Positions 45,181 through 48,312 of a DNA stretch of 64,000 nucleotides are shown here, piece after piece. The stretch comes from Macrostomum lignano (taxonomy: Eukaryota). The translations under genes were made by a program, and so were the position numbers. The notes under the pieces are model-generated. The model saw nothing but the letters and a program-made list of their open reading frames with translations. It was not told where the DNA came from and made no database searches. Each line of letters begins with the position of its first letter. Within the stretch, counting starts at the first letter, position 1. The stretch covers positions 219,276-283,275 of the forward strand of contig NIVC01001203.1 of the NCBI GenBank assembly GCA_002269645.1, given 5' to 3'.

Positions 45181-45681
45181 ATGCAGCGCTCTGGTGGTAA
45201 AATAGATTCACATGGACTGATAGAAAAGCTTCATCATCCAAACAAAGGCTGGACACTTCCCGGGTACAAATATTGTGGGCCTTTGAATCCACTTGAAATA
45301 CAGTTAGATAAAAACAATAATCCACATCCTGGGCATGAGCCTGTGAACGAGCTAGACTCTGTCTGCATGTGGCATGACATCAAGTATAGAGATTTTCCTG
45401 AGGAGAAGAATCGCTGGGACAAAGAAATGCTCAGGAGACTCGACAATATGGGGATTTTAAGCGGATTTCGTGAGTCGATTGCTAGGAAATTAGTCAAGGC
45501 GGTTATTTTTGGTAAGAAAAAGCTGGGGTTGGGGGTGGGCGCTGAGGGTGGGTGTTTGGGAAGAGAGGGCTGGTGCACGAGGAGAGAGGGCGGAGGCTCA
45601 GGAGCGGGGTTTGTTTTGTGCGCTCCTAACAAACAAATGGGAAGACTGCTGAAAGAGCTGGGGGTAGAGATGGGCGCTTGA
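45181..45681 (+). CDS. Parvovirus VP1u-like phospholipase A2; the C-terminal ~47 aa probably read into non-Polinton DNA
   Basis: GWTLPGYKYCGPLN (Ca-loop) and PVNELD...WHDIKY (catalytic HD). After KKKLGLG the sequence becomes G-rich and low in complexity. Confidence 0.85.
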   Translation: MQRSGGKIDSHGLIEKLHHPNKGWTLPGYKYCGPLNPLEIQLDKNNNPHPGHEPVNELDSVCMWHDIKYRDFPEEKNRWDKEMLRRLDNMGILSGFRESIARKLVKAVIFGKKKLGLGVGAEGGCLGREGWCTRREGGGSGAGFVLCAPNKQMGRLLKELGVEMGA

Positions 45682-46303
45682 ATCGGGAAGGGCATGAGCA
45701 AGTGTGGATTTGAGTAAGTACAGTTTTTTATTCCCTAAAGAGTTGCGCACAAGAGAGATTCTCATTCTTCAGAGAGCTAAGAGCAGAAAATGAAAAAAAA
45801 GTCAACCGCTTCACCGCCATTGGCATGCATGGACTGCTTGGGATTCCTTGATTGATATTGATTATTGGCCAAATTGCGAGGCCAGTTGGCCCGCCGAGTT
45901 GGCCTCGGCCCGCCGATTTGGCCTCGGAATGTGGCCCGCCTTGTTGGTCTATACGGTATGAAGATATGGGGGTGGGGTAGAGAGGGGCGCTTGAGTCGGG
46001 AAGGGTTTAACTATTATTCTCAACCCTGGCCAAACGCGACAGCTGCATTTGAAATGTTGAGAAGCAGAAGGGGGTGGGGTAACTGCTATTGCTGAGGGGG
46101 GGGCGTAGCCCTCTAATCGATTTTGCGAATGTACAAGTTCCACGTGTGCATTCCTTTCCGCTTTGACAACCGGAGGGAAGGAAGCGGGTGGAGGGAATTG
46201 ATCGCTCGGAAGCTAGTTAAAGCAAGCAAGAAAATTCAGCTCATTTTGCTCGCACACGTTCTTCGTCGCGCAATACTGCACCGTTGTGGCTGCTGATTTC
46301 ATT

Positions 46304-46691
46304 ATGTTGTAAGTTTATTCATTTTTTACTTACTGAAATTCTATACTGTGTTAAGAATTGAAAAATCTCTTATTTTGATTAAATCTTTGTTTTTAGTTCA
46401 CAAAAAATTACGTTCTACTCGACCGACCTAGAAAATCTCCATGGTCGACTTGTTGAAGGATTAGATGCCAACGAACCGGCATCAGAGAGAATTCAAGAAG
46501 TTCTCCATCATTTCTTCAATGAAAAAGTTGAGAACCAGCGAATTTGTTCAAGAGCGGCCATGGAGACCCAGGATAACAACTACGCCATGAGAACCGAAAT
46601 GGTGTTTGACGAACTTCGCCGATCATTTGTTGCTGATGAAGATTCACTTCTTAGTTATCAACAAATTTTTTCCAGGATTTTATCAATGTAA
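46304..46691 (+). CDS. Spliced orphan ORF (99 aa if the last donor is not used) inside the Polinton boundaries. Exons 46304-46308 and 46397-46687/46691
   Basis: ATG TT|GTAAGT...TTTTTAG|T TCA joins in phase and is followed by 97 open codons (MFSQKITFYSTDLENLHGRLVEGL...). A further donor AT|GTAAGC is at 46688. Confidence 0.55.
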
Positions 46692-47110
46692 GCTACTGAT
46701 AGTAATCTTCTAAACACTTTCCTGGATCTCCAGGATTTTTTTTTCCAGGATTTTTTTTAAACTCGTGCCAATTCCTGACAATACAGGAATTCCTGACAAT
46801 ACAGGAAAGTCTTTTACTGGATTTTTTTCCAGGATTTTATCAATGTAAGCTACTCATAGTAGTCTTCTAAACACTTTCCTGTATCTCCAGGATTTTTTTT
46901 TAAACTCGTGCCAATTCCTGACAATACAGGAATTCCTGACAATACAGGAATTCCTGACAATACAGGAAAGTCTTTTACTGGATTTTTTCCAGGATTTTAT
47001 CAATGTAAGCTACTCATAGTAGTCTTCTAAACATTTTCCTGGATCTCCAGGATTTTTTTAAACTCGTGCCAATTCCTGACAATACAGGAATTCCTGACAA
47101 TACAGGAAAG
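46670..47110 (+). repeat. Tandem triplication of an exon-intron junction (CCAGGATTTTATCAAT|GTAAGCTAC...) plus AATTCCTGACAATACAGG subrepeats
   Basis: Three copies near 46672, 46829 and 46988. Confidence 0.85.
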
Positions 47111-47257
47111 TGCTGTTCACAAAATGACTGGGAGGAAAATCAATATTATTCTGGATCCGAAGAATATCGATTTTGGATTGTGTGAGGATCTACAATATCT
47201 TGTTCTTTCTCTACCTTATTCATTTCCAGCCTTGCAACTAAGCTTGCGCGTCGCGGA

Positions 47258-47337
47258 CCAGCATTAGCTGGGGTAATTGGGGGTGTGTGGCGACTCCCCC
47301 AGTCCTTGGACTGAACAGCCGTACGCAGCCTTCAGAT
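47258..47337 (+). mobile_element. Internal fragment of the same SINE (truncated at both ends)
   Basis: CCAGCATTAGCTGGGGTAATTG...GCAGCCTTCAGAT matches copies 2 and 3. Confidence 0.85.
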
Positions 47338-47442
47338 CTGCTCTTTCCTCCTTTCCTTTCCTTTGTTTTATGTAAATATACTTGTGAATAAATGAACTCA
47401 GTATGTTTTTTAGTAAGCTTTTGTGTTTGCTTTTCGATTTCT

Positions 47443-48312
47443 TCTGTTGCTGGAGGACAGATGGTGGTAGAGAAACCAAATCCAGTGAAAAGAGTTGTAT
47501 TGAGTAATAAGGAGATTCACGAGATTGTGCTACAGTTTGAGACTGAAGATGGGATGGGTGTTGATTTCAACGGTGAAGAGTTTGTATTGACGTTAATCAT
47601 TGAGAGAATGTAAGAAAAAATTACAATTGCCTAATGATTTCTGCAAAGTTATAGTAGCTGTCGTAATCTTTTACGTAGGTTACTCCGTACTTATGAAACC
47701 AATGTCTTTGGAGAGCTTGATTAATATTAGGGACATTGATATCAACGCTGGGCCAATATTTTCTCATGTACTCGCTGCATTCAAGTTTGCATCGGTACTT
47801 GGATTTGTAATTAGGCTCGTGCGTTTTGTAATAAGAACCTGGAGAGACAACTGGAAACATTTTTAGAGAAAATTTAATTTTTTTTAAAGGGTGAGGACCC
47901 TGCGCTGATGATTTAAAGTCTTAGGGATGTGGTAGCACGTTGCGGATTGAATGTGGGGAGAAGAATGCAGATTATTTTCTGATTGTTTCGAAGATGCTAT
48001 GGGTGGATGTCGGTGTCAATGAGCATAACAGGTGTTAGTGGACATCTGTTATGCTCTGATTCTGTCAGGGATAATATGGATGGATTTAATACGATTATCT
48101 TCGAAGTTTTCGGAGCAAGTGCGACCCCTCCACTTTTTCATGATTCTGTCGGGGATAATATGGATGGATTTAATGGGATTATGGAGGACGTTTTGTGAGC
48201 GAGTGCGACCCCCCTTTTTTTCTGATTCTGTCAGGGATAATATGGATGGATTTAATGGGATTATGGAAGAGGTGAAAAATTTTGTCCCAGAAGCCCCCTC
48301 ATGCCTTCTACT
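47443..48312 (-). repeat. Polinton right inverted end (870 bp): an inverted copy of a left end, with the penton 3' fragment and the 79-aa ORF
   Basis: Reverse complement of the left end (16879 onward, continuing 23945-24739). Confidence 0.9.
47621..47860 (-). CDS. Second, diverged copy of the 79-aa inverted-repeat ORF
   Basis: 69/79 residues identical to 24325-24564 by manual alignment. Confidence 0.7.
   Translation of the reverse strand: MFPVVSPGSYYKTHEPNYKSKYRCKLECSEYMRKYWPSVDINVPNINQALQRHWFHKYGVTYVKDYDSYYNFAEIIRQL

Follow-up and report, generated by a model that had tools for sequence, protein, structure and literature searches.

A Macrostomum lignano Polinton with different alleles of a terminal gene at its two ends and a variable arm

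Background

How does a single insertion come to carry two clearly different versions of one gene at its two ends, and what is the DNA lying beside one of them? The question is raised by a 64,000 nucleotide stretch of the Macrostomum lignano genome (assembly GCA_002269645.1, contig NIVC01001203.1, positions 219,276 to 283,275 of the forward strand), termed the window and numbered here in its own coordinates, in which an element of the Polinton/Maverick type occupies 16879-48312. A sequence-only reading of the window had proposed that two distinct Polintons in inverted orientation were moved as one unit, capturing host DNA between them in the manner of bacterial composite transposons, whose outer ends are used together around passenger DNA. 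The locus is probably better described as one Polinton of around 16 kb, containing two nested retrotransposons, a variable cargo arm, an 870 bp right end copied from the left, and recombined alleles of ORF79, a 79-codon open reading frame (ORF). This explanation is built on the observation of one target site duplication (TSD), the full set of genes, the absence of inner ends, terminal repeats and a gene stub that are near identical around a divergent patch at ORF79, and variants of the arm. It is unlikely that the locus records a one-off composite capture, because many arm variants are present in four sequencing runs, diverged contigs lead from the PLA2 gene into the arm, and inner ends are lacking.

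Polintons and Mavericks have terminal inverted repeats (TIRs) of 100-1500 bp and TSDs of 5-8 bp (PMC10748475). In vertebrate Mavericks, which have TIRs of 46-1447 bp, accessory regions are found at both ends (PMC8097293), while nematode Mavericks commonly harbour, between TIR and integrase, a region of 2-5 kb characterised by high GC content, low conservation and intron-containing genes (Widen et al., 10.1101/2022.07.12.499685). Butterfly polintons may have TIRs of about 2 kb that include the hexon and adenain genes, and polintons with transposable element cargo have been described in the same work (Pannagram, 10.1101/2025.02.07.637071).

Results

One pair of ends around one element

The element begins with AGTAG and ends with CTACT, and the 6 bp sequence TGCGGC is found on the forward strand at both 16873-16878 and 48313-48318, forming one TSD around both ends. 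The left copy lies within a short interspersed nuclear element (SINE) and the right copy is followed by the remainder of it, such that each flank is one half of a single SINE; an intact homologue at 5195-5480 holds TGCGGC once. The TSD, and the split SINE as compared with this intact homologue, identify the outer ends as a true pair, as the sequence-only reading had supposed.

The right terminal repeat proper is 369 bp long (47944-48312, minus strand) and has five differences from its left counterpart, which is interrupted by a Bel/Pao long terminal repeat (LTR) retrotransposon. The outer part of the left repeat (16879-17062, plus strand), consisting of 84 bp subrepeats, is 98.4% identical to 48312-48129, and the inner part (23945-24239, plus strand) has two differences in 295 bp from 48238-47944. 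The right end as a whole, at 47443-48312, is an inverted copy of 16879-17062 joined to 23945-24739; its extent of 870 bp and its inclusion of a penton 3' stub, comprised of 56 codons plus a stop (47443-47613, plus strand), were correctly described from the letters alone. Both the repeat, at 369 bp or 870 bp with this extension, and the 6 bp TSD are within the published Polinton ranges. Coordinate arithmetic gives an element length of approximately 16.2 kb once the nested elements are subtracted. When 15000-50000 was compared with the window by self-BLAST, no third or fourth terminal repeat was detected, with only the outer ends matching each other.

Two alleles of ORF79 between near-identical sequences

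The two ends are far from uniformly diverged. Outside the genes, the outer 74 bp contain three differences and the next 295 bp two, making the terminal repeats proper identical at 364 of 369 positions, and the penton stub matches the left copy at 168 of 170 (two differences, 98.8%). Between these, the left (24325-24564, plus strand) and right (47621-47860, minus strand) alleles of ORF79 differ at 26 of 240 positions and are identical at 69 of 79 amino acids, and the non-coding patch upstream of the left allele (24240-24324, plus strand) differs from 47943-47861 in 16 of 85 columns. The repeat and stub together thus have seven differences in 539 bp, against 26 in 240 for ORF79 (Fisher p 8.6e-9, or p 3.4e-4 when a six-codon patch is removed).

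All of the ORF79 differences preserve the frame, and a hand count outside the six-codon patch gives around 6 synonymous changes over 41 sites as against around 7 non-synonymous changes over 178. The alleles therefore separated under selection well before the surrounding sequence did. The low divergence of the terminal repeat and stub fits the age of the insertion, since the LTRs of the Bel/Pao element, which is younger than the Polinton insertion, differ by about 1.6% (98.4% identical). The difference between the ORF79 copies far exceeds such post-insertion decay, so the copies stem from different variants of the family. The earlier description of the identity between the ORF79 copies, of their frame-preserving and synonymous changes and of the non-coding patch therefore stands; its view of the ends as diverged holds for the ORF79 copies but not for the ends as a whole, in which divergence is restricted to a patch.

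The left allele of ORF79 could be placed in no family. For both ORF79 and exon 2 of the arm gene described below, no Pfam family was found even at an E value of 10, and a word-based protein search confined to proteins of near length produced no candidates. Searching the PDB sequences with ORF79 returned only DARPins (E 0.6-1.1). A fold search using a model with a pLDDT of 49 was uninformative, with a best Z of 3.3. A language-model search returned RNase T2 clusters (0.92, with low recognition), unaccompanied by Pfam, PDB or fold support, and by eye ORF79 is similar to the second half only of the RNase T2 family. A likeness to RNase T2 is therefore a lead.

A variable arm between PLA2 and the right end

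Variation within the family was assessed using contigs from four of 24 public runs (four studies; X1, X2, X5 and X15), aligned to 43600-48390 at 85% likeness. The results rest on the best 32 of 22,121 pieces, 40 of 224 rows of differing letters, 12 of 45 indel rows and 24 of 1181 loose ends, and the contigs described as listed are drawn from these. That X15 is an RNA run is a guess, and the summed contig depth, having no single-copy control, is not a copy number.

All 30 bins of this region are covered in all four runs. The PLA2-domain gene (45181-45681, plus strand; PF08398, E 2.4e-13) has a variable C-terminal tail, and its ORF runs unbroken to 45681 through position 45540, at which the sequence-only reading had placed the start of non-Polinton DNA. 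Diverged contigs also pass this point: two of those listed cross 45540 with at least 31 letters on each side, having 11 and 18 letters other than those of the window (a third, which starts around 21 letters before, was excluded). One listed contig, 45640-45941, continues past the PLA2 stop into the GC-rich section of the arm (45682-46290). Contigs covering the arm where it adjoins PLA2 have approximately 87-90% identity to the window and are collinear with PLA2; most of 45954-46714 is tiled by additional contigs from the list, and those listed in the arm carry between one and 23 other letters. The proposal that the arm is host DNA captured once between two Polintons is therefore not supported, as many variants cover the arm in all four runs, diverged copies show it collinear with PLA2 and no inner terminal repeat is present.

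The arm is nevertheless much less deeply covered than the core. Cover falls after about 45520; in X5, single-contig depths are 1164-1412 in the core as compared with 223, 111 and 66 in the arm, the lowest listed being 16-20, and in X1, X2 and X5, the runs not guessed to be RNA, the arm has 5-7% of the summed depth of the core. From this the arm appears to be a multi-copy, minority type of the family.

At the other joint, one contig differs from the window at both 47423 and 47424, which lie 55-56 letters inside its left end in X2 and 44-45 letters inside it in X1; given this distance, it extends at least 36 (X2) and at least 25 (X1) letters beyond 47442. Seven X2 contigs behave as would be expected of left ends, carrying on from 47443 into the penton gene. 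X5 and X15 are without cover at 47423, which proves nothing. Short contigs in part point to other copies sharing this right end, which the sequence-only reading, with full-length copies in mind, had named as the sign of a normal architecture; no full-length copy was seen.

The listed contigs over ORF79 are 10, 11, 13 and 15 letters away from the right allele. The left-type letter makes up 82-100% of summed depth at codons 38 and 53, whereas left-type spacing at the stop makes up 13-27%, and it is on this basis that the alleles are considered mosaic, rather than dividing into a left type and a right type as two subfamilies would. Each of the window's alleles seems to be a minority type somewhere along its length, and a recombining pool fits better than two subfamilies. 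The summed depth of stub and ORF79 is 1.78, 1.90, 1.98 and 1.95 times that of the core in the four runs, an approximately two-fold ratio that fits ORF79 being present at both ends of most copies.

Composition of the arm

The sequence-only reading had described the arm, there about 1.9 kb long, as having a GC-rich region, a spliced ORF, tandem repeats and a doubly truncated SINE piece. The repeats and the SINE piece are present, the GC-rich part is limited to 45540-46290 (52% GC, compared with 40% in the core and 35-38% in the remaining arm), and the spliced ORF is a prediction. This predicted gene of about 99 amino acids (46304-46691, plus strand) would have two exons, with an ATG at 46304, a 5-base coding exon, an 88 bp intron (46309-46396) with GTAAG..TAG splice motifs, and a second exon of 97 codons. 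Its splice sites are predicted, and none of the listed contigs is spliced. Exon 2 shares 45% identity over 80 amino acids with the N-terminus of P0055, a protein of 224 amino acids known from Logan contigs only (E 2.9e-11), and this match makes the gene likely to be real. P0056 (E 5.6e-5), a zinc-finger protein in which one region is repeated, was not accepted as a second relative. Residues 81-224 of P0055, the structural model of which has a pLDDT of 39.6, find no counterpart further downstream in the window; judging from the sequence, the arm gene has possibly been cut short, or is possibly spliced again at a second donor-like GTAAG at 46688, where a 157 bp repeat starts. In all nine listed contigs over exon 2, the gap total is divisible by three (zero in six), and none of the 12 listed substitutions gives a stop.

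One observation bears on expression: in X15, a variant exon-2 contig (46397-46960) with an in-frame 3-base insertion has a depth of 389, compared with 25-31 at 46268 and 46345, and no such step is found in X5. With the RNA nature of that run being guessed, this is a lead on the expression of another copy only.

The 157 bp sequence is tandemly repeated 2.8 times at 46665-47108, with a donor-like site in each copy. Beyond it lies an 80 bp piece of SINE (47258-47337, plus strand), 96% identical to 5331-5408, which is cut on both sides and has no target duplication; ordinary SINE continuations appear as contig loose ends on both of its sides. Neither inverted termini nor a TSD that would mark the arm or this SINE piece as a nested element were found. 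A diverged X1 contig with 10 other letters, 47117-47257, ends exactly one base before the SINE piece, and there could be arm copies with and without it. Given the predicted intron and the SINE piece, the arm may be of host origin.

Gene content and nested retrotransposons

Four proteins pass the Pfam cut-offs. As well as PLA2, these are the packaging ATPase (36739-37539, plus strand; PF04665, E 7.5e-7; 54 relatives among 249 candidates), the adenain-like protease (39200-39601, minus strand; PF00770, E 1.6e-4) and a protein-X-like ORF (43681-44139, minus strand; PF05829, E 4.7e-7). The rve integrase is split over two ORFs (44156-45150, minus strand), one of which matches PF00665 (E 1.3e-5) with 25.8 bits against a cut-off of 32.6, and was counted as a retroviral-like integrase at that level.

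Other assignments are less direct. The likely penton, or minor capsid, gene (24569-25432, minus strand) has no Pfam or PDB match, and is labelled from its position and from an unnamed homologue with 37% identity, encoded in L002 at a distance of two genes from the ATPase. The likely major capsid gene (25454-34959, minus strand) matches PF21738 with an E value of 0.015, under the cut-off. The likely protein-primed PolB (39687-43556, minus strand), which includes an endonuclease VII domain, has several broken frames, and no PolB family was matched by its pieces in Pfam or PDB; three of its ORFs separately contain DFEC, DANNLY and YTDTDS, presumably PolB motifs. The frames of PolB and the integrase are both disrupted in this copy. 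The PolB and PLA2 frames also both enter similar G-rich repeats coding for LGLG near their ends (39640-39720 and 45510-45550).

The Bel/Pao element splitting the left end (17075-23944, plus strand; PF05380, PF03564) is flanked, at 16953-17074 and 23945-24054, by a perfect 110 bp duplication plus 13 bp in place of a short target duplication, the 13 bp being an inverted copy of the start of its own LTR. An aberrant one-ended integration or repair is the likely cause. The likely major capsid gene contains a Gypsy element (25943-34157), with a 4 bp duplication, CAAC, and LTRs that have one mismatch in 421 bp; its gag-pol ORF (26995-30171) has a cold-shock match between the zinc knuckle and the protease (PF00313, E 2.8e-4, under the cut-off). 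To the right of the Polinton, a host stretch is duplicated at around 71% identity (49229-50000 and 53459-54184).

No relative of the penton, PLA2, the ATPase or the terminal 20-mer was found among viral contigs, and two of 113 metagenomic candidates were confirmed, on contigs of 2.3-2.6 kb without element ends. Rfam gave no matches, and exact look-up in a protein collection found none of ten window proteins.

Discussion

Weighing the explanations

The favoured explanation is that of a single Polinton with a slot, between PLA2 and integrase on one side and the right repeat on the other, whose sequence would vary from copy to copy, as it does in nematode Mavericks. A template switch during repair or replication could have carried copying beyond the left repeat, through ORF79 and into the 3' end of the penton gene, generating the longer inverted repeat. 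ORF79 would be a polymorphic gene with a conserved frame, its alleles passing between ends and between copies by conversion, with conversion tract limits near 24240 and 24570, either before or after the Polinton inserted.

A number of observations weigh against this. The arm is of low depth relative to the core, and what occupies the slot in most copies is not displayed by the contigs; nor, with the loose ends listed, is the match of the X2 contig to the stub past 47442. None of the listed pieces spans the whole stretch or crosses 48312/48313. In around 11 of the 40 listed rows of differing letters, each of the four runs has 94-100% of its depth on a letter other than that of the window, and the copy in the window cannot therefore be picked out from the contigs. 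The continuity of this particular copy is thus presumed from the assembly. The proportion of left-type stop spacing is an undercount, with gapped alleles being clipped near contig ends (47617), and the two-fold depth of stub and ORF79 would equally be produced by a surplus of truncated left ends. In addition, eight of the 12 listed exon-2 substitutions change a residue, indicating weak constraint on the arm gene.

An alternative, improbable overall, is that a founder copy lost its right end, which was rebuilt in a composite-like event from host DNA and the left end of another variant, the product then spreading as a subfamily of which this copy is one member. The stub is truncated at its 5' end and is as similar to the intact penton gene as would be expected of an end copied recently from a left end, the SINE piece is just 105 bp from the joint between arm and stub, and the arm is a minority type. 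The joints nonetheless look to be of different ages, as variants on the PLA2 side, at approximately 87-90% identity, are far more diverged than the stub at 98.8%, which argues against a single capture; the mosaic ORF79 alleles would require recombination in any event. An extension of this idea is offered as a doubtful conjecture: the stub and ORF79 end would be the scar of cargo loading, in which a Polinton whose right end was broken incorporated chromosomal DNA and was closed by the left end of another copy, the product then spreading as a subfamily. ORF79 would on this view be a hypervariable cassette at the termini, perhaps encoding a reduced RNase T2-like protein, of which each element carries two different alleles.

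Less probable still is an assembly chimera, in which reads from different copies were merged such that the allele mismatch, or the arm, is not found in one molecule here. The family is present in high copy number, the PolB and integrase frames are broken, and the private letters of the window are nearly missing from the contigs. Yet private changes are also expected from the age of the insertion, as gauged by the Bel/Pao LTRs, the TSD and split SINE establish the outer ends as a true pair, and the ORF79 differences are in frame, with each type present in contigs.

Two inverted Polintons moved once as a unit with unique host DNA from a single locus would account for one TSD around ends with such different ORF79 copies, and for the predicted intron and SINE piece, but this is very improbable given the lack of inner ends, the PLA2 ORF reading through the proposed joint, the multiple arm variants collinear with PLA2 in diverged contigs from several studies, and the near identity of the terminal repeats and stub.

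Comparison with known systems

The single-Polinton explanation is in keeping with what is known of this class. The TIRs, 6 bp TSD, AGT-type terminus, integrase, ATPase, adenain and PLA2, and likely also the PolB and capsid genes, are shared with Polintons/Mavericks, including adintoviruses (PMC8502044, PMC8097293, PMC10748475), as are accessory regions at the ends and a size close to the vertebrate mean of 16.9 kb. By contrast, Alpha-type adintoviruses have PLA2 fused to a C-terminal protein-X domain as PLA2X, and here these domains are in separate ORFs (45181-45681 and 43681-44139); a further difference is that the inverted repeat holds a gene with two clearly different alleles.

The arm has the properties of a cargo region, being situated between TIR and integrase and poorly conserved between copies, as judged from its position and variant contigs, and its raised GC content and predicted intron-containing gene may correspond to those of nematode Maverick cargo. 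It differs in extending for about 1.8 kb after the PLA2 stop rather than 2-5 kb, in being GC-rich in only the first 750 bp, and in its gene, for which the one relative, P0055, is unnamed and neither a host donor nor movement between species is in evidence. As in butterfly polintons, some of which have transposable element cargo, element genes are included in the TIRs and so present twice per insertion; the genes duplicated there are hexon and adenain, and no allele difference between copies is reported in the available part of that work.

Lengthening of a TIR from neighbouring sequence, and ends of different subgroups within one element, have precedents. TIR extension by copying of adjacent internal sequence, and chimeric ends, are described in Galileo (PMC3573991), and maize Mu elements with heteromorphic ends still transpose (PMC10401008); such mixed ends are attributed to recombination or conversion. 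These are cut-and-paste transposons, however, and chimeric Galileo copies are without matching TSDs, whereas the present element has a matching TSD and differs between its ends solely in an internal patch. Ectopic recombination between Polinton copies has itself been proposed in C. elegans (10.1101/2024.01.15.575659). The likeness to a bacterial composite transposon (PMC6431247) extends to the joint use of outer ends, within one TSD, around passenger DNA. Two self-contained flanking elements with their own ends were not found by self-BLAST, the second 'element' here being 870 bp of end sequence.

In its terminal repeats and TSD, integrase, packaging ATPase and protease, the element behaves as a Polinton and is like a cargo-bearing Maverick, and it fails a defining test of a composite transposon. 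The feature is real, and is explained mostly by known Polinton anatomy. No title or opening of an abstract concerned a Polinton with different alleles at its two ends, or the loading of cargo by end replacement, in a literature search that excluded supplements and from which subscription journals were largely missing. Within that literature, the retention of a terminal gene as two different alleles in one element is new.

On the likeliest reading, that of a single Polinton with a variable arm, the presence of a variable cargo slot beside the integrase and of genes within the terminal repeats, known from nematode and butterfly Polintons, is extended to another animal family, to which is added a gene represented by a different allele at each terminus. 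This calls for caution in dating such insertions by the divergence of their whole ends. How cargo enters Mavericks is not explained in the available portion of Widen et al. (10.1101/2022.07.12.499685); end replacement, if true, would provide a concrete and testable route by which cargo genes enter these vectors of gene transfer.

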